IMG/VR virus record: IMGVR_UViG_3300020050_010116
Span: 1-64,000 of that record
DNA length: 64,000 nucleotides
Source of the DNA: a virus
Taxonomy: Duplodnaviria; Caudoviricetes
Direction: 5' to 3' (one strand)
Shown: one piece after another, positions 30,543 to 49,761 of the stretch
How positions within the stretch are numbered: position 1 is the first letter of the stretch
Layout of the letters: every line of letters starts with the position of its first letter
Translations under genes and position numbers: made by a program
The notes under the pieces: model-generated
What the model saw: only the letters and a program-made list of their open reading frames with translations
Database searches by the model: none
Told to the model about the DNA's origin: nothing

Positions 30543-31238
30543 ATGTCAAATATTTTTATGACTGGTGCTGCCTCTCATTACGAATTAGAATCTGAATACG
30601 TCCCTATTCCTGGATCTTCAGTTAGTATTGTTTTGGAATTTCCTGAGATAGGTCCTTCAGGTAAGAGTGTTATTTTTCATTTAGATGATGCTATGACTGT
30701 ATCATTTTCAGTGTACCGTAGTAAGGTCAGGGTTATTCCTTTAGGAAGAAATGAAATACTAGGTTATGGATTAGGCACTAGACTTGTAGCTGGTAGTATG
30801 ATAAGATCAGTATTCTCCACTGACAAACTTTCTAAATTACAGGAAGATGTTTATGCAGCTACACAAGAAGAACTGCAAGCTAGGCTTCTTGGAATAAACG
30901 GGAAGATACCGAAAGGGCTTCCAAAACAAGATACGTTAGCTTTAATGAAAGATGATCTTACCTCGTTTAACATACATATAGTGACACAAACTGAAGATTT
31001 AGTTAAGAAAGCGGATGAATCGTATGGACCTTACTCTAGATATGAAGTTATATTAGGTTGCATTATGATGAATACAGGTCAAGTGTACAGTATTGAAGAT
31101 CTTATTACAGAAAGTACTTTTTCATTTGAAGCTAAAAGTGTGAAGACCATAACGAATTTAAATAAAAATAATTATAGTGCAGGGTTCAGTTCAGGCACAA
31201 AAGTAAGATCGGTCAGCGACTTACTAGGAGGGGTATGA
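30543..31238 (+). CDS. Tube-fold paralog (tube initiator / baseplate-tube junction)
   Basis: PLGR..ILGYGLGTRLVAGSMI and GQVYSIEDLITE parallel the tube protein motifs. Confidence 0.7.
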   Translation: MSNIFMTGAASHYELESEYVPIPGSSVSIVLEFPEIGPSGKSVIFHLDDAMTVSFSVYRSKVRVIPLGRNEILGYGLGTRLVAGSMIRSVFSTDKLSKLQEDVYAATQEELQARLLGINGKIPKGLPKQDTLALMKDDLTSFNIHIVTQTEDLVKKADESYGPYSRYEVILGCIMMNTGQVYSIEDLITESTFSFEAKSVKTITNLNKNNYSAGFSSGTKVRSVSDLLGGV

Positions 31239-31880: not shown

Positions 31881-32336
31881 ATGCAAATAAAATTTAATGA
31901 ACAAGAAACCCAAACTCAACAAACTAGTTTAGAAGAAGAATTAGAACTTGACGAAGAGTATCAATTTATTTTAAATATGCACCAAACACTTTCTTTAGTT
32001 GATCCTATAAGCTGCCCTTCAGTAGCAGTTATTGAGAGTTGGAAGCAAAAATATAAGAACATCTACATATCTACTGTTGTAGAACCAAATAAGTACTTTG
32101 TGTGGCGAGCTATTCGCAGAGGTGAGTACAAGAAACTCGAAGGAGAGGGTGCGTTTGAGAAACAAAGCACCATGCATGAAGTCTTAGTAGAGCAATGCTT
32201 ACTTTATCCTACAAGTACCCCTACTTGGAGATTAACACAACCTGCTGGAGTCGTAGATACTTTAGGTAAACAAATAGCATATCATTCTGGATGGATCTCT
32301 GATCAAGAGGCTTTCGCAGCAATAAGAGTTATCTAA
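31881..32336 (+). CDS. Tail assembly chaperone
   Basis: IESWKQKY.NIY, FVWRAIRRGEY, CLLYP and PAGVVDTL; positioned between the tube and tape-measure genes. Confidence 0.7.
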   Translation: MQIKFNEQETQTQQTSLEEELELDEEYQFILNMHQTLSLVDPISCPSVAVIESWKQKYKNIYISTVVEPNKYFVWRAIRRGEYKKLEGEGAFEKQSTMHEVLVEQCLLYPTSTPTWRLTQPAGVVDTLGKQIAYHSGWISDQEAFAAIRVI

Positions 32337-32337
32337 T

Positions 32338-32853
32338 ATGTTCTTAAATTCAGGTTTGTCTTACTATAATGTAGTACTTAACAATAGAATCATATACACT
32401 GAAAAAGGTCTTCAGATAAAAAATCCAAGCTTTAAAATTAGATTATTAACTTATGCTGAGTATGCTAAGATAGATATAATGAGGAAAGCTAATGTGTCTC
32501 CTTCAGACATCTACGAAGACATATTTACAGCTTGTTATTTAGGTATTCTAGGTTTTGAAGATGAAGTGCTAAATGCTGAAGAAACAGGATTACTTATTGA
32601 TACGTTAGGTGCTCTGATATTTAAGGAGTCATCCAAGTACTTTACTAATCCTGAGTATCACTTTAATACTGCCTCAAATGATATATCTAAATTTGATATA
32701 TGGTGCGGATTTATTGCAAGAATACTGAACTTAAATTACGATGATGTTAAACAAAAACCTATTGACGAAATAATTAGATTGTACTCCTTATCATTTATAG
32801 TCTCTGGAGGTACAATCCCACACATAGATTTAAAACCTAAACAAGGAGAGTAA
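32338..32853 (+). CDS. Tail assembly chaperone-like protein 2
   Basis: IRLLTYAEY...IFTAC..G...ETGLLIDTLG parallels the preceding ORF. It lies immediately upstream of the tape-measure protein. Confidence 0.6.
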   Translation: MFLNSGLSYYNVVLNNRIIYTEKGLQIKNPSFKIRLLTYAEYAKIDIMRKANVSPSDIYEDIFTACYLGILGFEDEVLNAEETGLLIDTLGALIFKESSKYFTNPEYHFNTASNDISKFDIWCGFIARILNLNYDDVKQKPIDEIIRLYSLSFIVSGGTIPHIDLKPKQGE

Positions 32854-32859
32854 CATATA

Positions 32860-35800
32860 ATGGATCCTAGATTAGAAGATACAGGTAACCCTATACCAGA
32901 GTTATTAGGTGCATATGCTGGCTATAAAGTACTTAATGCTTCTAATAAAGCTAGGGAGTTGTACAACAAACTGCCTGGAACTACAGCACTGCAGTATCAG
33001 CTTGCACGTTCTAATGTCGCCATCGACACAACAACTCAATCTCTAGACAGAGCCATCTTATCTCAAGTGATGGCTCTCGAAGAAGCATCTCCCTTACACA
33101 TCCTACGTACTTTTCAAATATCTAATCTATTACAACCCTTTATAAAAATATCCGATTTTAATCAGGAAGTGCATATAAGTGGGCAGTCTATAAGAGGACA
33201 ACAAGTCTTCTACGAGTCACTATTACGTGAGCAACAAAAAGAATCTAAAAGACGCGTTAATAGGTTACTACAATCTGAAGATTTAAAAAGAGGCTTAATA
33301 TTTAAAAATAATAAGCTGTATGGTGTAGATAAACAAGGTAAGATTAATCTTAATGATATTGTATTACATGACGCTAGGTTAGTTACAGCCACTCAAAGGA
33401 ATGGAGGAGTTGTATCCCAGAACCATGTACTTAGAAAATACGCAGAGGGTTTAAAAGCACCCCTTAACTTAAAAAATGCTATAAATGATCCGTTAATGGT
33501 GGTTGGCTCGTATCAGAATAATCTAGGCAAGCAACTCAATGCGTACTTGAAATTAGGTATGGAGATGGGTTATAAAACTCTCGACAACCCTATACAAGGT
33601 TTTGAAGATATTGTTTCTGGATTGGGAGGCGATCTTTCTGGATTAACTCGCACAAGTTTCTGGCAAAAAGCTAAATCACTTGCTAATATTAGACTAGGTA
33701 CGGGAGGGGTCTATGATTTAGATCATTTGCAAAGTTTAAAACTTATGACTAAGAATCTTGTAACTAAGAGTGCTGGGGCATACATTGGATATCAGGGTCT
33801 TGACTCCTTATCTCGTTGGCTAGCTCCTGCAGGTTCTGATTTTGATAGTGGTTTATTTGCAGGTTTAGGTGGTATGTATGCAGATTTTAGGATAGGTTTT
33901 GCTAAAGTATGGTCCGACCGTTTCCAAGGATATAAAGAAAGACAAGAACAATCAGCACCCGGTTCTACAGATTTACTTACGTTAATGGGTTTTCCTCTAG
34001 GTGGTGCTTTAGTAGGCGCTCAGTACTCTTACTTTAGCCGTATAGGTAAGACTTTTAAAGATGGAGCCCCAGCAGCAGCAGATAAATACTCAGCTGAGAA
34101 TACATCCAAGCTGCTGCAAAGAGTTGCTGGTATTGATAGTCCAATGACTTTAATGAAACGTAATTCTCTTATTGGGGCTGCAATTGGCGGTGCTCTTACT
34201 TTACCATTCTTGCCTGGAGCTTTAATTGGAGCTTCTTCTAAAGAATTAGAGGAAAGATACTCAGGTAAGAAAGACACAGAGATTAGGGCAAACCGTTGGT
34301 GGTTATTTGGTGGTAACTCTATTCAAGGAGACCATGTAAAGTACTCACAAAAGAATTGGTTTCAATTAGCTAAAAGCGAAGGTAAAACAAAAGCAATTTA
34401 CGGAGACGATGAGACCAAAAAATCCCTTAATCCTTTATTACATCCTTTCTCTTATTTAAGAGACCCTTATAAGTTTGAAAAGCTAACAAATGATTCAATG
34501 CCTTATCCAGTATGGGGTATGGAGATTGGTTATGGTTCTTTCGTAGGTAAAATCTTTGAAAGAACTATAGGTCAGGTTATAAAACCTGATGTACTTAATC
34601 CAGAAATAGCGCAAGCAAAAAAAGAACATGAAGCTCGTGTTAATAAACTTAAAAATACAAATGATATTTTTGGGTTATCTATAGACAAAGAGATAATCTC
34701 GTTTAGAAATAAAAATCTAGGTGCAAGTTACACTCCTTCGACTGAAGATTCTTTTGGAGAAAAGACTACAAGATTATTTGAGTACGGAGAGTATAACCCT
34801 GCTTTAAGAAATATTGTTAATCAAGTGGCTGGTCTTAAGAATACAGATAACACTAAAGTTATTGATTTGTCAAAGTACGATATAAACGTTGAAGACGCTG
34901 ATACAATAGAGTTAAAAAGAAAAGGTCTATTTGGATTTCTAGATAAGAAAGTGCAGGTTCGTCTTGCCGGTGTTGATGCACCGGAGACTTCTGACCATGC
35001 TGCAGGAAGTTCACCTAAAGACGTATTTCATCAAGCTCAGGAGTACAATAAAGAAGCCACACAAACGCTTAAAGACATGCTAGCAAGGCAATCTGAGTTA
35101 AAATTGATTGTTAATACAAAAGATCAAACTTATGGTCGCCAACTAGGTGTTATTGTTGGTGATAATAATTCAAATATCAATATGGAACTTCTAAGACAAG
35201 GTGCTGTTACAGCGTTACCTTGGGATGGGGGCGACATTGTTAGTAAATCTGATTTAATGGCGGCGCAGAAAGAAGCTCAAAGAAATAACAAAGGACTTTG
35301 GCAAGGAAAGCGTTATAAAGCTGAGCAGTTATTCGGAGAATTAACAGGTGAGGTTCAAACCCACAACACTTTTACTAGTCTTCAAAGACTCTCTGAAAAT
35401 CCTGTGTTAGGTTCTTTAGCTACGTATTTAAAAAACATAGAAGGGCAAAAAGGGGGCTTAACTCAAGAACAAGTACAAGATATCACTATGTTAGCTAACA
35501 CATTTCTTAATTTTAAAGAAGGGACTTCAGAACAAAAACAAAGAAGTAGAGATCTAGGTCTAGAAGTTAGAAAGAACCCTACAGACGGAAGCACCTCAGC
35601 TATAAATACTAACTTAAGCTTTACACCTAATGTTCTGCCTTCTCTGGGTTACGGGAATACAGGTGTAAAGCCAGTACTACCTGCACCTAGCTTTGATCCG
35701 ATAACTCAAGGAAGTGAATTAGCATACCAAAGCCTCACAGATTTTGTTGGTATTAAAGGTTGGGCTTTCAGTATGGCTGTTGATGCTTTAGTAAATGACA

Positions 35801-37467
35801 CTCAAAGAAATAAACAATTAGCTAGATCTGGTGAAGCAACAAACGCTGCTAGAGATTTTAAAGATAGTAACTTAGGCGATGTTGTAGGTATAGGTGAGTT
35901 TCAACGTAAAATTATGGGTACTTCTTCAGGAGCACTCCCTCAAACAACCAACATGCTTAAGAATCAAATGCCAAACTGGTTACCTTCTGATGGTAATAGA
36001 TACTATATTGATTTCTCTAAAGGTAATCCTTACTCTCTTGTTGAGAACGGAGAAACAAGGCTTCCAGGCAGAGGCTTCGAAGCACTTCATCCTGAATTAA
36101 AAGGCTTAAAGCCTGAGGACTACCCTTTAATCTATCAGTATAAGATTTTATCTGACGTAGCTAAAGGCTCTTCAGAGCAGTATCGTATGCGAAGAAAGCT
36201 ATTAGATTTATATAAAGAAGGAAGCCTTAGCAAAAAAGAAGAAGACATTTTAGTTGATACTTTAGATAAGGAGGTTGCCAGAGATAATAAGAGACGTTTC
36301 AGAGATACTCCTGACAGTAATGGAGGCCTTTTTGGAATGTTACAGAGTACTCTCTGGAATAATATGATTACTGTATCTAATAGTAATCCTCTAGAGATGC
36401 TGACACCTTGGAGACCTTTTAGTAAATTTGTACATCAAAGAACAGCTATTGAGGATTACGAGGCAACTCAACTAGGAGGTAGTGATACTGCAATCTGGAC
36501 CAACCCTTACAGTCATTTTATAAAACCTGCATTAAATAAAATGCGTTTGTTAGTAGATGATACTTTCAAACCAGATGAGTTAATTGAAAAGGAAAATGTT
36601 AACGAGTACTTCGACAAACTCTCTTTGTTAAAAGGTTTGTTAAATAGTAATGAAAAAGAAGCTTATCAAACGGTAGTGCATTCTAGTTTATCAGGTTTAA
36701 ATACTAAAGAAAAAGTGTTACGTTTTAAAGCCGCGCTAACTGATGATCAAAAAGTATATTTTAATGATTTCTCTAAAGAGACTGGTACAGAGGCTAGAAA
36801 GAGAATACTTGAGATGCTTCCTGACGATGTAGCTCAAGGTTATCAACAAATTTGGAGAAATCTTGATTTAGCCACCAAAGCAAAAAATGCAGGGCAGTCT
36901 GTTCAAAAAGCGCTCATGAATGATTTTATTGAATCAACTGAAAAGTTAAAGAGCAGCTTTGGAGACATACCTTTAAGTAACGAAGAAAAACAGCAGATAA
37001 ATAAAACAATCACTAAAAATCGAGATGATTATGCTAACCAAGGGTATTCTTTATCTGAAAGAAGAGCTATGCTTGAAGCAGAAGCTTACAGGACTAAAGT
37101 AGCTCAAAAAGAAGCTTATCAGTATATTGAGCAAGCTACTGGAACACCTTCTGGATTTTTTGCTGGTTGGGACCCTAGGCTAACTGTTGACGATATAAAG
37201 ATTAAAACTTTAGCTATTGGCGGAGAAGATTTAAGAAAGTTTGGATTTTGGAAGACAGATGAAGAACGTATGAATAACATCTCAGAGCTTAACAGAGAAG
37301 AACAAGTTGTAACTAAATTAGATGCAATCAAAGAAGAAGTAAAAGCTTCAAGAACAACTAAAGAAGCAATTAAACATGCGTTGTTTAATAAAGGGTTTGT
37401 CGCAACAAATGTTAGAATCAACGACTCAGAAATAAATTCAGTTATAGTAAGAAATAATAACAATTAA
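32860..37467 (+). CDS. Tape-measure-position protein with embedded staphylococcal-nuclease (thermonuclease) domain
   Basis: 1535 aa after the chaperones, with hydrophobic segments (GFPLGGALVGA, IGAAIGGALTLPFLPGALIGA). The SNase motifs are ED(679)AD(681)T, VR(701)LAGVD(706)APE(709), YGR(760) and AQKEAQRNNKGLW. Confidence 0.75.
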   Translation: MDPRLEDTGNPIPELLGAYAGYKVLNASNKARELYNKLPGTTALQYQLARSNVAIDTTTQSLDRAILSQVMALEEASPLHILRTFQISNLLQPFIKISDFNQEVHISGQSIRGQQVFYESLLREQQKESKRRVNRLLQSEDLKRGLIFKNNKLYGVDKQGKINLNDIVLHDARLVTATQRNGGVVSQNHVLRKYAEGLKAPLNLKNAINDPLMVVGSYQNNLGKQLNAYLKLGMEMGYKTLDNPIQGFEDIVSGLGGDLSGLTRTSFWQKAKSLANIRLGTGGVYDLDHLQSLKLMTKNLVTKSAGAYIGYQGLDSLSRWLAPAGSDFDSGLFAGLGGMYADFRIGFAKVWSDRFQGYKERQEQSAPGSTDLLTLMGFPLGGALVGAQYSYFSRIGKTFKDGAPAAADKYSAENTSKLLQRVAGIDSPMTLMKRNSLIGAAIGGALTLPFLPGALIGASSKELEERYSGKKDTEIRANRWWLFGGNSIQGDHVKYSQKNWFQLAKSEGKTKAIYGDDETKKSLNPLLHPFSYLRDPYKFEKLTNDSMPYPVWGMEIGYGSFVGKIFERTIGQVIKPDVLNPEIAQAKKEHEARVNKLKNTNDIFGLSIDKEIISFRNKNLGASYTPSTEDSFGEKTTRLFEYGEYNPALRNIVNQVAGLKNTDNTKVIDLSKYDINVEDADTIELKRKGLFGFLDKKVQVRLAGVDAPETSDHAAGSSPKDVFHQAQEYNKEATQTLKDMLARQSELKLIVNTKDQTYGRQLGVIVGDNNSNINMELLRQGAVTALPWDGGDIVSKSDLMAAQKEAQRNNKGLWQGKRYKAEQLFGELTGEVQTHNTFTSLQRLSENPVLGSLATYLKNIEGQKGGLTQEQVQDITMLANTFLNFKEGTSEQKQRSRDLGLEVRKNPTDGSTSAINTNLSFTPNVLPSLGYGNTGVKPVLPAPSFDPITQGSELAYQSLTDFVGIKGWAFSMAVDALVNDTQRNKQLARSGEATNAARDFKDSNLGDVVGIGEFQRKIMGTSSGALPQTTNMLKNQMPNWLPSDGNRYYIDFSKGNPYSLVENGETRLPGRGFEALHPELKGLKPEDYPLIYQYKILSDVAKGSSEQYRMRRKLLDLYKEGSLSKKEEDILVDTLDKEVARDNKRRFRDTPDSNGGLFGMLQSTLWNNMITVSNSNPLEMLTPWRPFSKFVHQRTAIEDYEATQLGGSDTAIWTNPYSHFIKPALNKMRLLVDDTFKPDELIEKENVNEYFDKLSLLKGLLNSNEKEAYQTVVHSSLSGLNTKEKVLRFKAALTDDQKVYFNDFSKETGTEARKRILEMLPDDVAQGYQQIWRNLDLATKAKNAGQSVQKALMNDFIESTEKLKSSFGDIPLSNEEKQQINKTITKNRDDYANQGYSLSERRAMLEAEAYRTKVAQKEAYQYIEQATGTPSGFFAGWDPRLTVDDIKIKTLAIGGEDLRKFGFWKTDEERMNNISELNREEQVVTKLDAIKEEVKASRTTKEAIKHALFNKGFVATNVRINDSEINSVIVRNNNN

Positions 37468-37483: not shown

Positions 37484-40400
37484 ATGCCAATAAGTACTAA
37501 AGGTAAATTTGTATTAGGCGCTGCTGTTACAGGAGCGTACACGGGGGATATAATTGATGATCCCGTTGCTGGTATATTCGGAGCACTAGTTCTTGCAGGT
37601 ACAGCTAGCGCAATGAAGCTTGTTACAAGTGATGTTGTAGGTAACAGTAAAGTTATGAATACTTTTAATATTGATCAAAATAAGATTAATATTACTAGGC
37701 AAACTGGTTACACAGAAGCTGATCTCGCTGTAATGGCAAGAACAAAGAATAAGCTTAACAAAATAAACGCACACTTTAAGAACATAGCTGACTTACGTAC
37801 TCAGTTAGAGGATGTAACTTTAAAGTTACAAGATCCTAATTTAGAACCCGGTGTTCGTAAACGATTAATAAGAACAGGTAAAACTTTAAATAGAAAACTA
37901 GCTAAGGTTGGTAATCAATCTGCTGAAGGTTTTGCTCAAAACATTGCAGAAAAGCTTAAAGTAACTAATACAACTATTAATCCTACACAACAAGGATTAA
38001 TAGATTATGTTAACGCTATTTCTGAACCTTCCAAAGCAAATGCTGTACTAGCTATGTTAGAAGGAGCTTCTCCTGTACAACAACAGAGTATCAAAAAATC
38101 TGTTATGCCTACAAAGAATACAAAAGCTGTTTTTTCACTAAGTAGGAAATCTACACCAGCTTCACTAACAAAGTACTTAATGACTAACCTTGGAAATACT
38201 CAAGCTGACGCTGAGTTAAAAACAAAGTTGGTGTTAGATAGAGCAGTAGGGGATACAATAACTATTCAGAATCATAATATGATGTTTACTGATAAATTTA
38301 CAGGTAAAACCCAAGTTCTTCCATTAACAGCAGAGACAAAGAAAGGGATTATGTATCACTCCCCTTCTGCAGGTACTTATTTTGCTGTCGCAGGTGTTAA
38401 TCCTTACGCTGCTGCTTATAGTACTGGACAAACTGTTAAGATGTTAGATGGTACTACTAGAGTACCAACTTTTCAAGACGCGACTAAAAGAATGCATCCA
38501 GAATTACTAGCGTTACAGTTATATCAAGGTAAGTCTTTAGATGATGGAATTTCATTTGTAAAAGCACAAATGAAATTCTCAGGAGATGAATCTCAAAATG
38601 AACTAATCCACCGTGCCACAAAACTAAACGATACAGATCTTACTCAAAGATTTAGAGCAACAGGTAGTGCTCTTAATATAGAACATACTTTAAATTATGA
38701 CAATTTAGGTAATCTAGTTGAAGATAAGCCACTTAGGAAAATTGCTAAAGTAAGTTCTCAAGGAGGTACTAGTTCTGAATTAAAAGCTGCAATGATGGCA
38801 TATCAACAAGGTTTTATTGACAATGCTGGTGCAGCAGAGAGTATGTTTAATAACGTCTCTATTAACAATTTAACTACTATATCAGGAACTGTTTTCAATC
38901 CTTTAGCACCTATGAGTATGAATCAAAGGGGCGCTACTGCTGTTGGTATTCGTGATACTGTACCTGTAAACCGATCAAGTGCTTATAAAACACTAGCTGC
39001 CTCTGTAAAATCTTTTGAGCAACAATTTGAGAGTTCTAATGTATTTGATAAGATTGATATCCTAGATAAAAAAGCTTTTAATGAAGCTGTTGCACATTTA
39101 TATGGTTCTGATAAAGTATTAGCCGATGGTGCTGGTTTATTTAATTTAAATGCTTCCGCTATGTTCGAGCACGGATTGAATCAACGTATTGTGATCTCCC
39201 CTCAAAAATCTGGAAATCTTTTTATTAAAAATTCGAGAATTAATGAGTTATTACAAGCTCACCAAGAACTTCTTGAATCTAAGAGCAAAGTACTTAAAAA
39301 TGGTAACGGAGTTATTGATGAAGATTTCATAGACCTGTATCAAAAAGCAAAAGGCTTGCGTTCCCTTGATGCAGCTAGAATGAAAAAAGGAGAAGCCTCT
39401 CTTATACCAGATGATGTTAAGACTATTGCTCAACTTATGGATCATGTTGGTACTAAAGCTTATCTTCCTGTTGGATTCCCTCATGAAGACTTAGACAGGT
39501 ACGTAGGTAAGTTTAAGATTAAACCTGAGCAAGTTCTTGCTTACAACGGTGATGGTAGTGCTGTTAAATTACACAAACAGTTTAGTGAAGGAGTTCTTAA
39601 AGGATTGATGATGGACGAATCTGGACAATTAATCTTGCACACCAACTCCACGTTTAACCCAGGAAAAGAAGGTATTGTTAAGTTGTTTTCTGAGGCATCA
39701 AAGAGTAATTTATTCGGTGTATCCAATTACAAGCAAATAGCTGCTTTAGGTGCTCTAACAAACGCAGGTCAAATTACCATCAAAGATGGGCTACCTTACT
39801 ACAAAGGTGATATGCGAGCTCCAATCACGACTGACTTACTAGATAAGTATGTTAGTCTTGTAGAAGATAAAGTTGCAAAAAACGTTCCGTTATCTCCTCT
39901 GGAAATGGCAACAAAAAATGCAATGTCCACTCAAGTACTCTTAGCTGCAGAAGATACAAATATATCTGATTTTATTAAGATGACTAATGCTAGTACTAGA
40001 GATGAGGTAATGGATACTCTTAAGAAAGGGAGCAAAGTTAAATTATCAGATAACAGCTTACAGATGGTGCAAAACGCTTTACACAAAAATTCTTCTCTTA
40101 ACGATACAAAAAGAGCTGCACTAGCTGCTTATATGACTGCTAATTTTAAAGGTGCTACGGATATAACAGGCACTGCTGTAGGAAATATCATGGAGAATTT
40201 CCAAGCTGTAGTAGAGAACAGAAGCACTAAAGCTCAGGAACAAGCTATCTCTAATCTATTTAGTATGTTTTCTGGAGACAAGCCTACAATAGATGGTGTA
40301 AGAACAGACGCAGAAATGCGTAATAAAACTCATGCGAAACTAACAAAGCTTATTGCATCATCAACTAATTTAAAAAATCTAACGGAAGAAGATCCAAAGA

Positions 40401-42664
40401 AAAGACAGGCTGCCTTTAACAGACTTGTTAAATTACTGTCAGGTGTTTCTGATGATGATTTACAAAGATACTCCAGCGGTACTACTAATACAATAGCTTC
40501 TTTAAATAAAGGTCAAGGTGTTCTTGGTATAGGTAATGAAGCTAGATTGTCTTGGACAGCACAACATCAATTATTGCAATCTGGTTTTACTAAAGAACAA
40601 CTCAGTGTTTTCGGTCACAGTGATCCTCAAGCTCTGTTAGAGTTAGAGTCTTTGTTTGGAGAAACAAACTCTGGGTTTGGTAGACGACATGCAAAAACAA
40701 CAATCAATAAGTATCTCACTCAAGACAATTTATCTGACTTTGAACGTACTTTAGCTAGAACTGTCCCTGAAGGAAGACTAGCTGCACTCAAAAAACTAGG
40801 TATTGAGGTATCTGATAAAACTCCTTTTATAACTTACGAATTAAAAAATAGTTACAAAGGTCTTGAGAGATTAAACTTCAGTACAGTTAGTACTAATCGT
40901 TCTGGTTTTTTCACAAAGGATGATCAGTTACTGCTAAAACAACTAGAAGGGCATCGTTTAAACTTGTTCAGATTAGACAGACAACTTGCCAATGCTAAAG
41001 GAGATAAAATTCCTCAAGCTAGAAAGGCTTTTGAAGAAGCAGCAGACGAGTACATAAAAATATCCGAAGGTACTCTTAGAGGGGATAATTCTTTAGTAAA
41101 AAATGCAGCATCACTCAGATCAAAACAAAGTAACGTCGGTCTTGCAAGAGCTATTGGAGGAGAAGCCTCTGCGTATATTCAAAATCAAGTAGACGATGGG
41201 AAAATGCCTAATGGTGTTTTTGTGTCTGAGGAGGGTTTAGATATGCGTTTAAAAAGAATGAATATTGGGGATAAGGAGTGGAGATACGCCCCAATTGACG
41301 GATACTCTGACCTAAATAAAGTACAATATAAAGTTAATAACGAGTGGATAGATTTAAAAGGACTCTATACTAGGGAGCCGTCTCAAGGTAACCTATCTAC
41401 TACTTGGGAAGATATTATTGTTGATCGTTCTATAAAAGACAAAGAAAGTGCGGGACATACTTATGTAACAGAGAATCACATTGCATTCACTACTGGTAAG
41501 GTCATGGATTACGACCAAGATCAACTTCAAGAGTTGTTTCCTAAATTGTCAAGTAAGGCTCAACAGGTCGAGTTAGATACAAAGTTTAATAAAATTGGGG
41601 AAGATGTTAATAGAATTGCCAGATTGCATAAGTTTCTAAAAGTTAAAGGTGCTGATAAGGCAACGCCAACTGCAATGGACTTTGATAATTATGAGGATGC
41701 AGTTAGTTATAAAAATGTTGCTGGTCTTCAAGGACGTGAAAGAAAAGCGTTAGCACCTCCATCCACAGCTTTAGCAGTTGATATAACTGAAGCTTTAAGT
41801 TTAGAATTTGGCAAGGATAGTCAGAGAACACACAATGCTCGTTTCCTAACTCATACCTTAGTTGAAAACTTAATCAAGTCAGCGCACGTTGACACTAAAG
41901 ACTATGAAAAACAAACGGAGTCTAGTATTGAAGCTTTTTCTAGATTAAGAAAAGACTATATCGGGGGGAGAATAGATGCCAAAACATATAGAAAAGAGAT
42001 AACTCCAATTATTGATCAATCCTTAAACTTAGGTAAAGCGTTAGCTAGTACAGATTTATCTCAAGAAGATAAAGATTTTCTATCTGCAGCTAGAGATGAT
42101 ATGGTAACAGCAGAAGTAAATCAAGCTAAAACTGTTGCTTCTCGTGCTAAGCACCCACTACATGTAACTCAAGGTGTTGGAGGTGGTAACATCATGACAA
42201 GAGCGGCAGATGCTTTAGAAAACTTTGTTCTAGGCACTGGAGGTGAGTTTGATTTGCAAGGTACTCAATCCTATGGTAGAATGTTAACCGAAACTAAAAC
42301 TAATATAGCAAAAACAATAAGTCAAAACAAAGGTATAATAGGACTAGGTTTGGGTGCATTAACAGTAGGGTCAATGATGACTAGGTCAGGACCTGATCTT
42401 CCAGATATTGATAAAGTTGATACTGACCGTTATATTAGGAATGATCCTTCCAAGAACTTAAGACCAGCTAGAACAGTACCGACAGGTATAGACACTAATA
42501 AGCAAACTAGTAATTACATAGTACCAAAACAACACACAAAAGCAAGATCCATAGAAATTGATGGCGATTATACTGATCTCTTAGTACCTCCAGAGGAAAG
42601 AGTAAGAGATATGTCTTCGGCAGTATTCGGTGATGCTTTAAGACAAGTACGAATTGAAACATAA
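37484..42664 (+). CDS. Putative single-chain two-barrel (fused beta/beta'-like) virion RNA polymerase
   Basis: Colinear motifs: NQR(480-482), LAD(548)G, K733-x6-K740, GNEAR(1021)L, L(1198)RG..., R(1297)EP, D(1342)YD(1344)QD(1346), R(1420)KAL and ENLIK(1465)SAH(1468). Hydrophobic segments lie at both ends. The call is based on motif recognition only. Confidence 0.72.
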   Translation: MPISTKGKFVLGAAVTGAYTGDIIDDPVAGIFGALVLAGTASAMKLVTSDVVGNSKVMNTFNIDQNKINITRQTGYTEADLAVMARTKNKLNKINAHFKNIADLRTQLEDVTLKLQDPNLEPGVRKRLIRTGKTLNRKLAKVGNQSAEGFAQNIAEKLKVTNTTINPTQQGLIDYVNAISEPSKANAVLAMLEGASPVQQQSIKKSVMPTKNTKAVFSLSRKSTPASLTKYLMTNLGNTQADAELKTKLVLDRAVGDTITIQNHNMMFTDKFTGKTQVLPLTAETKKGIMYHSPSAGTYFAVAGVNPYAAAYSTGQTVKMLDGTTRVPTFQDATKRMHPELLALQLYQGKSLDDGISFVKAQMKFSGDESQNELIHRATKLNDTDLTQRFRATGSALNIEHTLNYDNLGNLVEDKPLRKIAKVSSQGGTSSELKAAMMAYQQGFIDNAGAAESMFNNVSINNLTTISGTVFNPLAPMSMNQRGATAVGIRDTVPVNRSSAYKTLAASVKSFEQQFESSNVFDKIDILDKKAFNEAVAHLYGSDKVLADGAGLFNLNASAMFEHGLNQRIVISPQKSGNLFIKNSRINELLQAHQELLESKSKVLKNGNGVIDEDFIDLYQKAKGLRSLDAARMKKGEASLIPDDVKTIAQLMDHVGTKAYLPVGFPHEDLDRYVGKFKIKPEQVLAYNGDGSAVKLHKQFSEGVLKGLMMDESGQLILHTNSTFNPGKEGIVKLFSEASKSNLFGVSNYKQIAALGALTNAGQITIKDGLPYYKGDMRAPITTDLLDKYVSLVEDKVAKNVPLSPLEMATKNAMSTQVLLAAEDTNISDFIKMTNASTRDEVMDTLKKGSKVKLSDNSLQMVQNALHKNSSLNDTKRAALAAYMTANFKGATDITGTAVGNIMENFQAVVENRSTKAQEQAISNLFSMFSGDKPTIDGVRTDAEMRNKTHAKLTKLIASSTNLKNLTEEDPKKRQAAFNRLVKLLSGVSDDDLQRYSSGTTNTIASLNKGQGVLGIGNEARLSWTAQHQLLQSGFTKEQLSVFGHSDPQALLELESLFGETNSGFGRRHAKTTINKYLTQDNLSDFERTLARTVPEGRLAALKKLGIEVSDKTPFITYELKNSYKGLERLNFSTVSTNRSGFFTKDDQLLLKQLEGHRLNLFRLDRQLANAKGDKIPQARKAFEEAADEYIKISEGTLRGDNSLVKNAASLRSKQSNVGLARAIGGEASAYIQNQVDDGKMPNGVFVSEEGLDMRLKRMNIGDKEWRYAPIDGYSDLNKVQYKVNNEWIDLKGLYTREPSQGNLSTTWEDIIVDRSIKDKESAGHTYVTENHIAFTTGKVMDYDQDQLQELFPKLSSKAQQVELDTKFNKIGEDVNRIARLHKFLKVKGADKATPTAMDFDNYEDAVSYKNVAGLQGRERKALAPPSTALAVDITEALSLEFGKDSQRTHNARFLTHTLVENLIKSAHVDTKDYEKQTESSIEAFSRLRKDYIGGRIDAKTYRKEITPIIDQSLNLGKALASTDLSQEDKDFLSAARDDMVTAEVNQAKTVASRAKHPLHVTQGVGGGNIMTRAADALENFVLGTGGEFDLQGTQSYGRMLTETKTNIAKTISQNKGIIGLGLGALTVGSMMTRSGPDLPDIDKVDTDRYIRNDPSKNLRPARTVPTGIDTNKQTSNYIVPKQHTKARSIEIDGDYTDLLVPPEERVRDMSSAVFGDALRQVRIET

Positions 42665-42678
42665 CAAGGTAAAGTTAA

Positions 42679-45600
42679 ATGAAACAAAAAGAAGTATTTA
42701 TTATAAATGATGTTACTCTAGACGTTAATCCTTCGGATATACGTTTGATTGATGACACTTATGCTATGCGAGAAAGTTACTTAAGAAGTAATGCAGTATT
42801 CTCGCATAAATCTAAGTATGCGTCATCAAAAATAGTTGTGACAATTCCTGTACAAAGTAAAGATATTAATAATCTTTTTTCATATAAAGATTATAGTGAT
42901 CTCTCTGGTATAGTTAAAGTTATTATACAATTAAATAACTATCCTTTTTGTTTCATTAAATCTAAAAGGATAGAGTCTTACGTTAGTCCGACAGCAGTAT
43001 CAGAGAAAACTAATTTTATGATATTTGCTGTCGATGAACTAAATATTGTAACTAAAAGCGAATTAAATGATGTAATGCTGCTAGAAGTAGTTCTAGTTTA
43101 TTTTAATCATAAACCTTTTGTAGATGACTTTACTTTTGCTCGTACACTTAATACTAGCTCTAATCCTGTAGATATTAATGAGAATTCAAATATTAAATTT
43201 GAAACAGAATACCTGTACAATGACGTAGGAGTAACTTCTTTAGAAGAGTCCGAAGCTTGGTCTCGTTATTTTAATAAAACTTTAAGTGATATTAAATATA
43301 AAGTTACCAGAGAAAATGCTAATACATTTTTTAAAGGAACTCGTGGAAATCATTTCCTAAATAGTATTAAACTAGCAATAGGTGTTCCAACTGTTAAAGT
43401 TATAACTTTAGATAGTGCTCAAACTGATTTTTCATTAGTAAACGAAGAGACTAAACTAGTTGTATCCTCTAATACGGAGTTAACTCAAGAAGAACTCTAT
43501 ACTAACTTATTAACAAATAAATCGGCACAAGATTTTAGAAATATTTTAAGGGAAGATAAACAATTTAAAGAGTTAGTTGGCGAAGTTAATCCAGAAACAA
43601 TTATAGACAAAATTACAAATTTCAAAGCAGAAAAAAAAGCTGAGTTTTTTAAGAGACATAAAGTATTTGCTATTGACTATGTCGACATGGATCTAACTAC
43701 ACTTAACATTGCTGTACAATCTTTTGAGTACAGAAAGAAGAACCGTCTTGCTATTAATCATATCGGATCGCTTAAACACCCTGTAGTACAATTCATGGGT
43801 AGATATCCGACTGAGTTGAGTATTAATTTTACTTCTAACATAAACAGACAGTATGAAGGAGAGTACTCTCCTGACAGATCTATTTCAGCTATCGTTAAAG
43901 AGCAATTCAATATTATTGACTACAATGCGAGTTTATACCCTGAAGTCACTGCATATAATAATCTTAAAATTAAAACAACTCCTACATTGTTAACAGGTAA
44001 TGTTCGTTACTTACCTAATCAAGTACATATCTCTGCAACAAGCCAACAGCAAGGACTAGACAGTTTTGCATGTACTTTTGTTGAGAGTGATTTGACAGAG
44101 TTGTTCAAGTTAGGAGAAGTTGTCAATTCAGGTAAAAAAGGTGGTTCCCAGTTAGCTGAGTTTTCTCACAAAGCTGTGCAGCAATTCTTAAGAGAAATGA
44201 AGCAGCTATTACAAGATAAAAATAAAATTAATTCTCTGTCTGAAGTGGATAAGGAGATATTGCTTAACTTGTACTCAAGATGTTTACAGTTAATTAATAT
44301 GATATATCAAGAGTTCGGTGCCAAAGATGTAACAGAATTAGGTGTTGATGATTTAGTTGAAAAAGTAAAAGAGAGCGATTATTACTTGTTGGCTTTACTA
44401 TTTACAACTTATGACCCAGGAGAGCCTTTTAGTGCAGCCACTGTTCTTGCTGGTTTTGCTGGTGTTGCTTTAATCGCATCAGGTGTTGGTTTAATAGCAA
44501 CAGGTGTTGGTTTAATAGCAACAGCGGCTACATATTTAGTAGCGGACCAATTTCAAGAAGAAATTAATTTATCTCCTTATAATTATAAATTATTATTTAA
44601 TAATGATGAAGAAAAGTCAACACCTGTTGTTCAACTTAATTTAAAATTATTAGAAGGCGTGCAAAGCAAAGAATTAATTTTAAATTTAATACAAGCCCGT
44701 TTAAATATTGTTACGAATACAAACGTATCTTCTTTTAAATCTAAGATTCAATTTAGAGAGTTTCCTGAGACAATAAATGCTTTCAGAGAAATACTTTCTT
44801 ACATGCAATTAGGTGCAGAAAAAGGGAACAAGATTTGTCAAAAAGTAGTTTCTTCTTTTAATAAACAATTTTTTGAATTAATTGGTCAGCAAACTGTGTC
44901 TTTTACAGGACAAGCTATTCCTGATATTAAGTTGGAGAAGCTAGTTAATAATTATGTTACTGTTTCTGATAGCATAGTACAAAATATCAACCCTTTCTTT
45001 TTTCTCAGAGAATATAAACATTTTGAAGACTTAGAAATAGAAGAGATATTTAATCAAGTTACAGAGTTAAATAATGCACTTGAAGATGCCACAGGCATCA
45101 CTGATACAATTGTTGAGATTGTAGCTGAAGAGCCTTTAATAGACAAAGTTGCGGGAGATCCTGATGCTTTGTCTTATCAGTCAGCAAAAATTAATTATGT
45201 TATGCCTATTCAGGCAGAGTACAAATACGCTACAGTACCTGAACCTTTGCTAAAATTTGAATCTGCCCTTGCTGAAGTCGAACGTCAAGAACGTGTAAAA
45301 AATAAAACGCCGCTAACTAACTCAACAAGCCCTGCCTACACTCCTTTTAGGGATAATTCAGTCCCTTTGATTAATGATATTAAAAGAGACCACGATAGAG
45401 AGGTGTTACTTAAGTATAAATCTAGAGTTAATCTCCCATTAACAGATGATCAGTGGCTGTACTATGCAAACACTATAGCACACAGGGAATCCAGGTATCG
45501 TCACGATATTAAAGGCGGAGCTAGGAATGCATACATAGGAAAGTATCAGTTAGGTACTGGTGCCTTGGTTGAAGGCCAAGTTCTAGATAGAGCTTCTTCA

Positions 45601-48600
45601 GCAAAACAACTTTTTGCTTGGCAATACACTGAAAAATGGCTGAAAAATTGGAACGCTGATTTCTTCTTGGCAACACCTGACTTGCAAGCTTTTGCTATGG
45701 CGAACTACACGAATGCTAATATAGGTTTTATAAGTGCAGAATTTAAAAAAGCTGGTTTAAGAAATTTTCAATCCTTACCTTTAGAGCAAAGATTAGCTCT
45801 ATTATCAGTGGCTCACTTAACTGGTGCAGACACTGTAGTTGATTTTATGAGAGGTGTTGTTAAGAAAGATGCTAACGGTGTTAAAAATAAATCCCGTTAT
45901 GATGAAATGCTTGCAGTTCAAAAACAACTGATATCTGGCCCACTTACAGGAACAACAGATACTACAGTAGAAAAATATAGTGTTGTCTTCATTGAGGCTG
46001 TAAATGGGGTAACATTTAAAGGAAAAGACTTAAGAACTAACAAAGAGTTTAATTACAGATTTCACGGTTCGTCTGAAGCACTCGAGTCGGGTAAGATTAA
46101 TTTTGAGGCGCTTGGTAAGAATTCTGCAGACCTAGATAGGACACTAAAATCACGTTTAACTACTTTTATGAAGAGACACCCTAATCTTCTAGCACAAGAT
46201 CAAGGAGATACTGCTGCAGGTGACAAGTTAGTTGTAGTGACTTCAGGGAATAATAACTTAAATAATTTAGTATTAGCTGAGGGTTTTGGATTTATAGATC
46301 CAGTTTTTAAATCAAACAGTGCTTATTTAAAAAATACACAGGCTGCAGAAGGAGCTGAGCGAGGCGTATTTGCTCTCTTAAATAAAGATGGAGTTATTAG
46401 TTCAAAAGATGCTAAGAGTGCTTTAGACAACGGAATAAGATCAACTAAAAAATTTACAGATAATGAATTAAGAGTAGCCTCTAATGTTAATTCATTATCT
46501 GCCAATACCGATAAAGGAAAAGTTCTTCAGGTAAGCCAAGCTCCATTTTTAAACAAAGAAGCTAAGTTTGTTATTAGCTCAGGTTTTGGCATAAGAACCA
46601 TAGATGGTAAGACAGGTCCGCACAAAGGTATAGACATTGTATGTACGACAAGAAGTGTGCAAGGAATGGAATTAGTCTCTTTAGCTGACGGTGTTGTTGA
46701 GTCAGTTAATAAAAATGCCGAAGGATATGGTTATGTTGTTAGGGTAGCTCACGGAGGTGATTACAGCACTGTTTACGGACATATGAGTAGAATTGATGTG
46801 AAACAAGGCCAAAGGGTTATAGCCAATAAAACAATACTTGGCCTTGCCGGGGGTGCTAAAAAGACCGTAGGGGCGGGGCGTTCAAGAGGTGCTCACTTAC
46901 ACTATGAAATCTTGTATAAAAATAAGCATATAAATCCTTACAAAATACTTGATTTAGGTCTCGCTGCAGGAGGTCTTGGTGGTATCCTTGAAGGTATCTA
47001 TAATCCGTCTGCAGTGGCTGCCCCTAGCTTTAATACTAAGAAATTTACTGAAACTGTACCTAGCAGCCGCCTAGTTGTTCAAAGCGTATACGACGAATCT
47101 CTCTTGTTAAATAAGATTGTTGAGAAATTAAACAAAAATGTTAACAAAGGAATGGCACAAGCTTTTCCTACTATCAAAGTTTACATTACTGTGGGCAACG
47201 AAGATCAAGATTATTGGTTAGGTCTTGATGCATCAACAATAGAATATTATGAATTAAAAGGTATTAGAGACTTCTCTCTTGTAACCAGTAATCAAAATAA
47301 CCCTATTGATGTTGTAAGTATGGTAGTCGCTGATCCTAATTTTATTAAAAGTGATGAAGTTACTAGCATACTTTCAAGTGTATACTATAAAGACGAAGAC
47401 GGTAATTTAACAAAGACTACGGATACCAATGGTATTTCTATAGATGCAATAGGTACTGATTACGAGAGACAATTTAAGAATAATAGAATCAAACTTAGGC
47501 CGGGGATGAAGCTTCATATACGTTTAGGATATGAAAATAACCCGAATAATCTTGATATCGTCTTTAATGGTTCAGTGATTAATACACAAAATGTAAGCGC
47601 TAATTCTATTAGAGTTGTTGCTGAAAGTTTTGGTAAAGAACTTCTTACAGAAGTACTAGGAACCACGGAGCCACAACGTTTAGGTGGCGGATGGAATAGC
47701 TCTACAGGATCTATTTTTGCTGACTTAATGTTACTACCGGGAATATTTCATTTTGGTAAATCTTATTCCTTTCTAAGGATGGTTGCACAGTTTACGTTAG
47801 GCGATGAGATTGATCCAGAAGCTAAGAGCCTACTACGCGGCAACACTAACTCTCTTTCCCAATCATTTAGTAATGATGGCAGTGCAAATCCTTTTAACAC
47901 CAATTACTACTTAGGTTTTAAAATCTTTAGTAATGTTGTTCAAAGATCTAGAGTGTATACGAATATATACGCCGCAGACATAGAACATGTTGATAGTGAA
48001 TTTGATTCTCCTGTGGCTAATCTATTTGCTAATTCACTGTTTAATTTAAATAGAGCAATCACGTACGATTATTTTGCTGTAAGTGAAACTCCTTGGGAAA
48101 CAATGAAACAGATGACTTATCGTCATCCCGGAACTATAGTCAAACCAATGTGGTACCAAGATCGTTGTACTCTATTTTATGGAATAAAAGAACAGCTGTA
48201 TATTGCTAGAGACGCTGATAATGTTCTTATGAAAGAAACTGTCATTGACAAAGATAACAGCCCAGAAGAACAGTTAGCATTACCAAAGTACGCAGAAGTT
48301 CGTTCTCAACGTATGGAACCAGCATGTAATTTCCATATTTTAAGTACAGAGTTAAATATCATAAATAACGCTATTAAACTAAATGGTAATTATTTTACTA
48401 AGGTAAACGTTGCTTATAGAGATGATAACGATGATATTACAACTATATCTGATTGGGAGACTCTGCAGATGTCTTTGGATGATAACTTATCCCCTTGGTC
48501 GATAAGAAGCACTGAGTTGACTTTAAGTGGTTGCGACAAGCGTTACATGGCTTATAGATATGGTACTCAATTCTTGCTAGAAGAGGCTGAAAAGATGTAT

Positions 48601-49761
48601 GAAGGCAAGATTCTTATTGTAGGTAATCCAACGATGAAAGCAGGAGATTATGCTTTCATAAAAGATACTAACAAGAGAATGTTTGGTATTATTAAGATCA
48701 GAGAATGTAAGCATCATTTTAATGAAAAAGATGGTTTCATTACGGAGATCACTCCAGGCCAATTCGTAGAACCTGCTGAGTTTGTAAGGTCTACTTTCTT
48801 TCTTAGATTAGGTCTCGTAGCTAAAGGTCTTATGGATATAAAATCTAAGAGTCTGTTAAGTAAAGCTTTTAGTAGCGAAAGTCTTCAGATGTTTGTTAAC
48901 TACTTGTATCTACAAGATCAGTTTGCAAAGTTAAATGAAATATCTGGTAGTGCTGATATATTAAAGATTGATACATACGTAGCAGGTTTAACTGAAGATC
49001 CAGGGTTTACGTTAACCCACTTCAGCATGGGGGCATTCTTTACTTATCTAACTTACCGTACAGGTAAGAATTTAATTCTAAAGACAGGTTTTAATTCTAG
49101 ATTTGGTTTCTTTAATAAAGGGGCTCTTCAAGCTCTAAGTAAAGCGGCCTCAGATACTGGAGCGTACTTAACAAGAACTTTTGGGAAACAAGCCTTAGTG
49201 GCCGGAGGAAGATTAGCACTATTTAACGGATTATTAACTTTAGATAAATTTTGGTACGGCCCTGATAAAGCAGCCCTTCTTGCCAGAGGTGCATTAAGAT
49301 TACCCGTTATTGGAGTAAACCTGACAGCTAGACTTTTAGTAAGAAGTGCAATTGTAACTGCTAGTACAACAATGCTAGGAATAAGTATATTTAACCCTAT
49401 TGGTTTTCTTGTTACTGTTGCCATAAGCTTAGCTATCTCTTGGGCTAATGCTAAGATAGAAGAGAACAAATACACTCGCCAACCAGCTTTATTCTACCCT
49501 CTTGTATACCATGGTAAATATTATGTTGCTGGTATGGATGGTGCTGTTAGAAATACCTACTTTGATTCACTAATCTTAGAAGGTAAGACAACTATAGCTC
49601 AAATACAAAAAGCAGCAACAATCGTAGATAAGAAGAGACAATTAACTGGTAACTCTACTCTATTCCCCGGTTTCTTGAAAAACCGTGAATACAAAAGAAG
49701 AGTTACTTTTGAACTTGATTCTGAAGGTAACGTTGTAAAAAATCTTTATGGAGTTAATTAA
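42679..49761 (+). CDS. Multidomain baseplate hub / tail lysin (lytic transglycosylase-like, degenerate SNase-like, M23 peptidase and hub domains)
   Basis: HRE(937)S...GKYQ is lysozyme-like. H(1315)KGID(1319) with H(1406)LH(1408)YEI is an M23 peptidase. LRPGMKLHIRLGY...FNG and GNPTMKAGD are hub-type motifs. Confidence 0.8.
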   Translation: MKQKEVFIINDVTLDVNPSDIRLIDDTYAMRESYLRSNAVFSHKSKYASSKIVVTIPVQSKDINNLFSYKDYSDLSGIVKVIIQLNNYPFCFIKSKRIESYVSPTAVSEKTNFMIFAVDELNIVTKSELNDVMLLEVVLVYFNHKPFVDDFTFARTLNTSSNPVDINENSNIKFETEYLYNDVGVTSLEESEAWSRYFNKTLSDIKYKVTRENANTFFKGTRGNHFLNSIKLAIGVPTVKVITLDSAQTDFSLVNEETKLVVSSNTELTQEELYTNLLTNKSAQDFRNILREDKQFKELVGEVNPETIIDKITNFKAEKKAEFFKRHKVFAIDYVDMDLTTLNIAVQSFEYRKKNRLAINHIGSLKHPVVQFMGRYPTELSINFTSNINRQYEGEYSPDRSISAIVKEQFNIIDYNASLYPEVTAYNNLKIKTTPTLLTGNVRYLPNQVHISATSQQQGLDSFACTFVESDLTELFKLGEVVNSGKKGGSQLAEFSHKAVQQFLREMKQLLQDKNKINSLSEVDKEILLNLYSRCLQLINMIYQEFGAKDVTELGVDDLVEKVKESDYYLLALLFTTYDPGEPFSAATVLAGFAGVALIASGVGLIATGVGLIATAATYLVADQFQEEINLSPYNYKLLFNNDEEKSTPVVQLNLKLLEGVQSKELILNLIQARLNIVTNTNVSSFKSKIQFREFPETINAFREILSYMQLGAEKGNKICQKVVSSFNKQFFELIGQQTVSFTGQAIPDIKLEKLVNNYVTVSDSIVQNINPFFFLREYKHFEDLEIEEIFNQVTELNNALEDATGITDTIVEIVAEEPLIDKVAGDPDALSYQSAKINYVMPIQAEYKYATVPEPLLKFESALAEVERQERVKNKTPLTNSTSPAYTPFRDNSVPLINDIKRDHDREVLLKYKSRVNLPLTDDQWLYYANTIAHRESRYRHDIKGGARNAYIGKYQLGTGALVEGQVLDRASSAKQLFAWQYTEKWLKNWNADFFLATPDLQAFAMANYTNANIGFISAEFKKAGLRNFQSLPLEQRLALLSVAHLTGADTVVDFMRGVVKKDANGVKNKSRYDEMLAVQKQLISGPLTGTTDTTVEKYSVVFIEAVNGVTFKGKDLRTNKEFNYRFHGSSEALESGKINFEALGKNSADLDRTLKSRLTTFMKRHPNLLAQDQGDTAAGDKLVVVTSGNNNLNNLVLAEGFGFIDPVFKSNSAYLKNTQAAEGAERGVFALLNKDGVISSKDAKSALDNGIRSTKKFTDNELRVASNVNSLSANTDKGKVLQVSQAPFLNKEAKFVISSGFGIRTIDGKTGPHKGIDIVCTTRSVQGMELVSLADGVVESVNKNAEGYGYVVRVAHGGDYSTVYGHMSRIDVKQGQRVIANKTILGLAGGAKKTVGAGRSRGAHLHYEILYKNKHINPYKILDLGLAAGGLGGILEGIYNPSAVAAPSFNTKKFTETVPSSRLVVQSVYDESLLLNKIVEKLNKNVNKGMAQAFPTIKVYITVGNEDQDYWLGLDASTIEYYELKGIRDFSLVTSNQNNPIDVVSMVVADPNFIKSDEVTSILSSVYYKDEDGNLTKTTDTNGISIDAIGTDYERQFKNNRIKLRPGMKLHIRLGYENNPNNLDIVFNGSVINTQNVSANSIRVVAESFGKELLTEVLGTTEPQRLGGGWNSSTGSIFADLMLLPGIFHFGKSYSFLRMVAQFTLGDEIDPEAKSLLRGNTNSLSQSFSNDGSANPFNTNYYLGFKIFSNVVQRSRVYTNIYAADIEHVDSEFDSPVANLFANSLFNLNRAITYDYFAVSETPWETMKQMTYRHPGTIVKPMWYQDRCTLFYGIKEQLYIARDADNVLMKETVIDKDNSPEEQLALPKYAEVRSQRMEPACNFHILSTELNIINNAIKLNGNYFTKVNVAYRDDNDDITTISDWETLQMSLDDNLSPWSIRSTELTLSGCDKRYMAYRYGTQFLLEEAEKMYEGKILIVGNPTMKAGDYAFIKDTNKRMFGIIKIRECKHHFNEKDGFITEITPGQFVEPAEFVRSTFFLRLGLVAKGLMDIKSKSLLSKAFSSESLQMFVNYLYLQDQFAKLNEISGSADILKIDTYVAGLTEDPGFTLTHFSMGAFFTYLTYRTGKNLILKTGFNSRFGFFNKGALQALSKAASDTGAYLTRTFGKQALVAGGRLALFNGLLTLDKFWYGPDKAALLARGALRLPVIGVNLTARLLVRSAIVTASTTMLGISIFNPIGFLVTVAISLAISWANAKIEENKYTRQPALFYPLVYHGKYYVAGMDGAVRNTYFDSLILEGKTTIAQIQKAATIVDKKRQLTGNSTLFPGFLKNREYKRRVTFELDSEGNVVKNLYGVN
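44459..44521 (+). repeat. 21-nt tandem repeat (two identical copies plus one 17/21 copy) encoding GVxLIA(S/T)
   Basis: caggtgttggtttaatagcaa at 44480-44500 and 44501-44521, with ctggtgttgctttaatcgcat at 44459-44479. Confidence 0.9.

Follow-up and report, generated by a model that had tools for sequence, protein, structure and literature searches.

The gene at positions 37484-42664 (+ strand) of the viral record IMGVR_UViG_3300020050_010116 likely encodes a catalytically competent, single-chain two-barrel RNA polymerase (RNAP) that is delivered in the virion for early transcription. That the protein is an active two-barrel polymerase is very probable. The window analyzed here is the first 64 kb (64,000 nucleotides) of this 80.6-kb IMG/VR record, which is estimated to be 34% complete and is a fragment of a jumbo myovirus with a contractile tail, like Acinetobacter phage vB_AbaM_ME3 (ME3) and Bacillus phage 0305phi8-36. 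An earlier reading of the DNA without database searches (the sequence-only reading) had proposed from a series of short motifs that the gene codes for a fusion of beta- and beta'-like halves in one polypeptide. The open reading frame (ORF) is present as described, with an ATG start and 1726 amino acids (aa), and each residue numbered in that reading, from N480, Q481 and R482 through H1468, is indeed the letter given for it. Its central proposal is supported by a confident structural model, by best matches in the PDB that are all RNAPs, and by invariant catalytic residues.

The AlphaFold2 model of residues 440-1600, built on a 43-sequence alignment drawn from the 88 relatives described below, is a globular fold with a mean predicted local distance difference test score (pLDDT) of 91.1 and a predicted template modeling score (pTM) of 0.88; the 10-residue blocks that hold active-site residues average pLDDT 83-95. 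The best PDB matches found with Foldseek are nearly all RNAP largest subunits, namely bacterial beta', Rpb1, poxvirus Rpo147 and the archaeal A subunit (E 1e-4 to 3e-3, probability about 1.0). In a second structure search, independent of Foldseek and run over 48,161 PDB representatives, the top 16 matches are all two-barrel RNAPs, among them RDR2, QDE-1, beta'/Rpb1 and phage non-virion RNAPs. The beta'/Rpb1 chains align to residues about 1062-1585 (623-1146 in model numbering), including the bridge-helix and trigger-loop region, and residues 1215-1355 match isolated double-psi beta-barrels (DPBBs). Chains of the beta/Rpb2 type align to the N-terminal half of the model, while the single-chain enzymes RDR2 and QDE-1 align over the whole of it, both halves included. 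Support for the beta-like half is less strong than for the beta'-like half. The sequence-only reading had named structure prediction followed by Foldseek as a check, and the outcome is thus a confident fold whose best matches are two-barrel RNAPs.

Neither the protein alone nor a profile of 8 sequences found any meaningful match in sequence searches of Pfam, PHROGs and the PDB. A word-indexed homologue search found only five close relatives, with three loci in IMG/VR, and an exhaustive HMMER profile search with query residues 440-1600 over 1.84 billion cluster representatives was needed to reach 88 relatives. Each of these represents one 50%-identity cluster and reaches E <= 1e-10, and with few exceptions their lengths fall within 1437-2441 aa. 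When they are mapped onto the query, only 47 of its 1726 positions reach at least 85% conservation, and 10 of the 11 residues numbered in the sequence-only reading are among those 47 (hypergeometric P about 9e-16). Eight residues are universal in two-barrel polymerases, three Asp and R-x-P in the beta'-like DPBB, and one Asp and two basic residues in the beta-like DPBB (PMC2919709). All eight have counterparts that are 98-100% invariant among the 88 relatives: the Asp triad (D1342 in 88/89, D1344 in 89/89, D1346 in 88/89), whose conservation in homologs had been named as another check, R1297 and P1299 of the R1297EP motif (88/88 each), D548 of LAD548G (61/62), and both Lys of VK733LFSEASK740 (K733 and K740, 80/80 each). 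Between the first two Asp, 66 of 89 relatives carry F or Y, which matches the canonical DFDGD. The sequence also fits the pattern [RK]xP-x(20-100)-DxDxD, which Chaban et al. used as their family filter (PMC10770324, Supplementary Data 4), with a spacing of 45 from R1297 to D1342. That the catalytic set stays 98-100% invariant although overall identity falls below 20% is a signature of selection on catalysis.

Several motifs outside this universal set are conserved too. In the proposed bridge-helix motif R1420KAL, R1420 is kept in 87/90 relatives and K1421 in 89/90, along with T1428 in 83/90, and the motif lies in a 40-residue helix. In the proposed trigger-loop motif ENLIK1465SAH1468, which lies in a helix-loop-helix, E1461 and K1465 are both kept in 88/88 and H1468 in 83/88. 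The spacing K1465-x-x-H1468 equals that of what we take to be R933-x-x-H936 in the beta' trigger loop. The letters of L1198RGDNSLVK1206 are present with K1206 conserved in 87/87, S1023 is conserved in 88/88, and G1015 and G1017 are conserved too. Two of the nine proposed motif equivalences, both to beta, are not supported by conservation. In MNQRG, N480 is found in 28/58 relatives and Q481 in 7/57, the conserved residue nearby being R490 (56/58), and in GNEAR1021L the Arg is found in only 26/84.

The polymerase-like region takes up the whole protein except for about 235 residues at the N-terminus and about 130 at the C-terminus. All parts lie on the + strand. The region begins with a beta-like N-terminal alpha/beta region (residues about 236-517, 38189-39034), which includes R490. 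It is followed by DPBB-B, a beta-like double-psi barrel with a helical insertion (residues about 518-746, 39035-39721), with D548-G549 encoded at nucleotides 39125-39130, K733 at 39680-39682 and K740 at 39701-39703. In the model D548 stands just before a strand, K733 is in a strand, and K740 is just before the next strand, after the helical insertion, a predicted placement that fits the beta-barrel layout of Asp, insertion and K-x-K. A mostly helical inter-barrel connector (residues about 747-1214, 39722-41125), which carries G1015, G1017, S1023, W1024 and K1206, leads to DPBB-A, the beta'-like double-psi barrel (residues 1215-1355, 41126-41548), with R1297-E-P1299 at nucleotides 41372-41380 and the putative metal-binding D1342-Y-D-Q-D1346 at 41507-41521. 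After DPBB-A, DSSP of the model shows the 40-residue helix with R1420-K1421 and T1428 (residues 1403-1442, 41690-41809; model 964-1003) and then the helix-loop-helix with E1461, K1465 and H1468 (residues 1447-1476, 41822-41911; model 1008-1025 and 1032-1037); as modeled, these two elements follow each other, and are shaped, as a bridge helix and a trigger loop would be. The protein would thereby combine the features of the superfamily: a DPBB-A with DxDxD, a DPBB-B with two basic residues and one Asp, and a bridge helix with a trigger loop.

The N-terminus holds hydrophobic Gly/Ala-rich helices (residues about 5-49, 37496-37630) with conserved G17, Y19 and P27. Residues 1-60 contain two such helices (5-20 and 27-43), both modeled at low confidence, and on the Kyte-Doolittle scale the segment 23-49 exceeds a threshold of 1.4. 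The sequence-only reading had placed hydrophobic segments at both ends. Its N-terminal flank stands, while the C-terminal Gly/Ala-rich stretch at about 1617-1633 is below the same threshold here and above it in 22 of 86 relatives. That stretch belongs to a conserved motif, N-K-G-(hydrophobic Gly/Ala-rich)-R-S-G-P (residues 1615-1637, 42326-42394), in which N1615 is kept in 71/75, K1616 in 67/75 and P1637 in 59/66. The last 60 residues are conserved across relatives as well, in a C-terminal tail (residues 1665-1726, 42476-42664) that includes Y1678, P1681, F1715 and G1716. Between the N-terminal helices and the polymerase-like part is a long helical hairpin or bundle (residues about 65-192, 37676-38059). 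In a separate AlphaFold2 model of residues 1-760 (pLDDT 87.9, pTM 0.79), its helices 78-115, 122-142, 147-160 and 169-192 have high pLDDT. The hairpin matches generic coiled coils only, and these matches swamp fold searches with the 1-760 model, for which Foldseek returned nothing at E <= 0.001 and in which residues 196-470 gave no clear match of their own.

The location of the gene in a tail module, also claimed in the sequence-only reading, is borne out by a sheath gene, a baseplate wedge protein, a baseplate hub with an M23 peptidase domain, and synteny with ME3. Among the phages of the GenBank collection, ME3, with a genome of 234.9 kb, alone has a homologue, ME3_36 (annotated 'hypothetical protein', 27% identical), and its gene order is the same; several ME3 genes in this tail order were annotated by homology to 0305phi8-36. 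Eight further loci, which include distant members of 1551-2441 aa, show this synteny in full or in part. The conserved order is a sheath-sized gene, tube-sized genes, two chaperone-sized genes, a protein of 1231-1550 aa (often with an SNase domain), this gene, and a hub that carries SLT and/or M23. The full order is found in ME3, in three loci at about 40% identity and in two distant members (1802 and 2424 aa), and three shorter contigs keep the immediate neighbors of the polymerase gene. The locus of a 2441-aa member departs from it: there a 423-aa gene intervenes, and the hub position is taken by an 831-aa gene. The polymerase gene lies in the tape-measure slot, between the chaperones and the hub, one gene removed from the chaperones. 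Given its conserved position in the tail operon and its short conserved hydrophobic termini, the protein is therefore most likely a virion protein. In ME3, the family profile detects no second polymerase or paralogue beyond the single copy ME3_36, and among ME3 ORFs of at least 150 aa the [RK]xP..DxDxD pattern points to ME3_36 only; its other matches look like chance.

Early transcription by a virion RNAP has been shown for gp96 of phage P23-45, gp66 of crAss-like phage and the N4 vRNAP. Two-barrel RNAPs associated with tails or virions thus have precedents (PMC10770324), and in the Thermus siphovirus P23-45, the N-terminal 1200 residues of the 5002-aa tape measure gp96 are an active two-barrel virion RNAP (Chaban et al. 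2024, PMC10770324; PDB 8H2M/8H2N). By analogy, the polymerase described here may be assembled into the virion with the tail and, after sheath contraction, leave through the tail, either together with its tape-measure-like neighbor or following it. The M23 peptidase of the hub, joined in relatives by an SLT domain, would open the wall, and the SNase domain of the neighbor may act in the envelope or on host nucleic acid. Once inside, the polymerase would transcribe the early genes of a genome of roughly 235 kb before any phage protein is made and with no need for the host polymerase. Its hydrophobic termini may keep it at a membrane pore, so that transcription would accompany DNA entry, as was proposed for P23-45 gp96 (PMC10770324). 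A later hand-over to the host polymerase would fit the sigma factors of group 2 jumbo phages. Virion packaging, tail passage and membrane tethering, all three part of the sequence-only reading, are plausible from the conserved synteny.

Four points weigh against an RNAP delivered in the virion. The protein has no significant sequence similarity to known RNAP families, as the Pfam and PDB searches gave no match. Its best single-chain structural matches include the RNA-dependent enzymes RDR2 and QDE-1, which bears on template preference, so that use of a DNA template is presumed here. The association of the family with the virion is deduced from gene position only. Lastly, a folded core of about 1350 residues cannot fit the lumen of the tail tube, so ejection would need an unfolded or metastable state, or else packaging in the head.

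In one alternative the polymerase is active but not a virion protein: it would be made inside the cell, for example for middle or late transcription, and its gene would merely have its place in the tail operon. We regard this as distinctly unlikely. The position between tail-assembly genes and hub is strictly conserved down to about 20% identity, conserved hydrophobic termini and a conserved extreme C-terminus would be unexplained in a soluble cytoplasmic enzyme, ME3 has one copy only, and infection could not be started by an enzyme whose expression depends on a late structural operon. Another alternative, in which the protein is itself the tail tape measure, lying extended in the lumen, setting tail length and refolding after ejection as P23-45 gp96 does, is unlikely, albeit with more in its favor. 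The slot is that of 0305phi8-36 gp146, assigned as tape measure and as virion protein (PMC2147016). The N-terminal helical region varies in length, with insertions of roughly 130-440 aa near query position 107-170 in relatives P0023-P0027 and P0031. The longest members (P0072 and P0081, 2424-2441 aa) have about 650-750 additional residues somewhere upstream of their conserved C-terminal half, and such variation recalls a spacer that acts as a ruler. Docking in the hub could be the task of the conserved C-terminal tail, and Bacillus-phage proteins of 2434-2515 aa at the same position share the RxP..DxDGD region (hhalign E 8.8e-5). However, a compact globular structure is predicted over about 1350 residues, leaving only about 190 N-terminal residues that resemble an extended helix, and the canonical slot right after the chaperones is held by the 1535-aa neighbor, which by position is the better tape-measure candidate. 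Instead of the extended helical chain without compact fold by which a tape measure would be recognized, the models contain confident alpha/beta folds that are compact by pTM.

Two further alternatives accept the fold and dispute the activity. A two-barrel enzyme for RNA-dependent RNA synthesis, for priming of DNA replication or for PolD-like DNA synthesis is very unlikely in our estimate. Least credible, and extremely unlikely, is a structural tail protein whose polymerase-like fold has decayed and become inactive. The positional counterpart in a related lineage, gp146 of 0305phi8-36, is without any DxDxD, suggesting that the activity can be lost, but the catalytic set of this family is invariant at 98-100% with identities below 20%. 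A plain tape measure and a decayed remnant were both rejected, the fold being globular and the catalytic set invariant.

An active polymerase carried in the tail may have a history in this slot that reaches beyond the family itself. In 0305phi8-36, gp146 (2537 aa) was called a 'hypothetical tape measure protein' from the tail length and was found to be a virion protein by mass spectrometry (PMC2147016). In the related tail modules of Bacillus jumbo phages, KLEB27-3 gp034, WH1 gp095 and the Edson protein (2434-2515 aa) likewise have a gp145-like protein on one side and the hub on the other (L011:7206-14507, L035:1258-8802 and L036:1363-8907 for KLEB27-3, WH1 and Edson; L038:2623-10233 for gp146). 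The motif NRYP-x(37-39)-D[YH]DGD is present in all three proteins, and a profile of them aligns with that of the family over 190 columns spanning K1206, RxP and DxDxD (hhalign E 8.8e-5, probability 60%). The alignment is moderately significant only without gp146; with a four-sequence Bacillus alignment that includes it, E is 0.17 and not significant. HMMER with the family profile found no match to the Bacillus slot proteins and left KLEB27-3 gp031, gp033, gp034 and gp035 undetected. A hydrophobic stretch followed by RSGP at the C-terminus is common to the Bacillus-phage proteins and the 1726-aa protein. DxDxD occurs nowhere in the 2537 aa of gp146, and 0305phi8-36 encodes the YonO-like gp99 instead. 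These observations suggest that a polymerase has long been linked to this slot and was lost in one lineage, homology of the sequences being a lead so far. In a more far-reaching scenario, which we offer tentatively and consider doubtful, a polymerase in the tape-measure slot would be ancestral to the whole 0305phi8-36/ME3 supergroup, Gram-negative and Bacillus lineages alike; it would travel unfolded in the lumen as, or docked to, the ruler, refold at the inner membrane with its hydrophobic termini as anchors, and couple early transcription to the entry of a genome of more than 200 kb, and 0305phi8-36 would have lost the triad after gaining gp99.

The closest precedent is P23-45 gp96, not cited in the sequence-only reading, in which a polymerase likewise sits at the tape-measure position. 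The two differ in several respects. The protein described here has no long ruler in the same chain and no metallopeptidase domain (Pfam finds no peptidase domain in the 1726 aa, and M23 sits in the hub gene instead), and its phages are contractile-tailed. A profile comparison with gp96 is not significant (hhalign E 0.12), its best path aligning exactly the RxP..DxDxD region, profile relatedness to gp96 and gp64 was not found, and in structure the model resembles QDE-1, RDR2 and beta' more than it does gp96. QDE-1 has the same spacing of 45 from Arg to Asp (R962 to D1007). The protein gave no Pfam match to the YonO/RdRP family PF05183 at E <= 0.1 (PF05183 was not matched anywhere in the 80.6-kb record either, in a search whose controls were silent too), and relative to the QDE-1/RDR2/YonO clade, it is much longer, has a large helical inter-barrel connector and lies in a tail operon, not among replication or early genes. 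The crAss-like phi14:2 gp66 (PDB 6VR4) has a lower structural score and no detected sequence similarity, and its phage is a podovirus-like crassvirus, unlike the contractile-tailed jumbo phages here. Compared with the multisubunit beta/beta' enzymes of bacteria, archaea and eukaryotes and the split enzymes of phiKZ and AR9, the protein is one polypeptide at 8-11% identity, and neither a flap (SBHM) insertion nor clamp domains were recognized in it. No account of the polymerase family turned up in the literature searches; ME3 is not in the supplementary list of Chaban et al., which covers only viruses with at least two RNAPs (PMC10770324). The kind of enzyme is known; the family, which had gone unannotated, is new, and so is its setting.

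Among predicted viral structures in BFVD, two proteins share a common fold with the model over about 1160-1300 columns: the 'Minor tail protein' A0A8S5SD80_1 of Siphoviridae sp. ctnpt50 (1423 aa, E 3.6e-8, TM 0.36) and the unnamed A0A7R7G2L5_2 (E 2e-6). More tail-annotated two-barrel polymerases probably exist, and automated annotation labels such genes hypothetical, tape measure or minor tail protein.

A 2021 survey of jumbo phages by Iyer et al. reported RNAPs only in phiKZ-like 'group 1' and in two 'group 3' phages, and placed ME3 in group 2.2, the group 2 phages being reported to encode sigma factors (PMC7824862). A phage group thought to be without a polymerase of its own thus probably injects one. 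If so, ME3-like phages could start infection without the host polymerase and then use the host enzyme redirected by phage sigma factors. P23-45 is the only described case of a polymerase at the tape-measure position found in our literature searches, and where that case covers a single group of Thermus siphoviruses, the present family would add phages with contractile tails, in at least 88 sequence clusters. It would also sharpen the problem of how a polymerase of about 190 kDa passes through, or rides in, a tail tube, and as a very divergent branch it would be of use in tracing how two-barrel polymerases evolved. A cultured system in which the proposal can be tested is phage ME3, with A. baumannii DSM 30007 as host.

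The genes surrounding the polymerase gene, all on the + strand, follow the conserved order. Terminase, portal and major head protein genes are annotated in the window from Pfam and PHROGs. The tail sheath (27711-29756; PHROG 16991, E 3e-79) is followed by two tube-sized genes (29771-30472 and 30543-31238), two small chaperone-like genes (31881-32853) and, right after these, the 1535-aa neighbor (32860-37467), the counterpart of 0305phi8-36 gp145. Each of the two tube-sized genes matches the PHROG of the other as well (9206, labeled 'major head protein', and 34314). The two appear to be paralogs that code for tube proteins, so 'major head protein' is probably a wrong label. The SNase domain of the 1535-aa neighbor spans residues 699-815 (about 34954-35304; Pfam E 3e-17) and recurs in the neighboring gene of four relatives' loci, and the protein has one strong hydrophobic segment, at residues 436-459. 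Downstream of the polymerase gene, which lies between the SNase protein and the hub, the 2360-aa baseplate hub (42679-49761) is identified by Pfam and PHROG and is 32.5% identical to the ME3 'baseplate hub protein', with its M23 domain at residues 1314-1420. Strongly hydrophobic segments are also found in the hub at residues 581-623 and 2208-2260, which could be membrane-active parts of the ejection apparatus. A baseplate wedge protein is encoded at 51155-52282, with further baseplate wedge genes in the module.

Elsewhere in the window, ARAGORN found no tRNA or tmRNA genes over positions 1-64000. A 430-aa ORF at 3461-4753 contains an intein splicing domain (PF14890, E 2e-15, residues 134-271), and all 43 of the 43 ORFs of at least 100 aa that are not nested in a larger ORF lie on the + strand.

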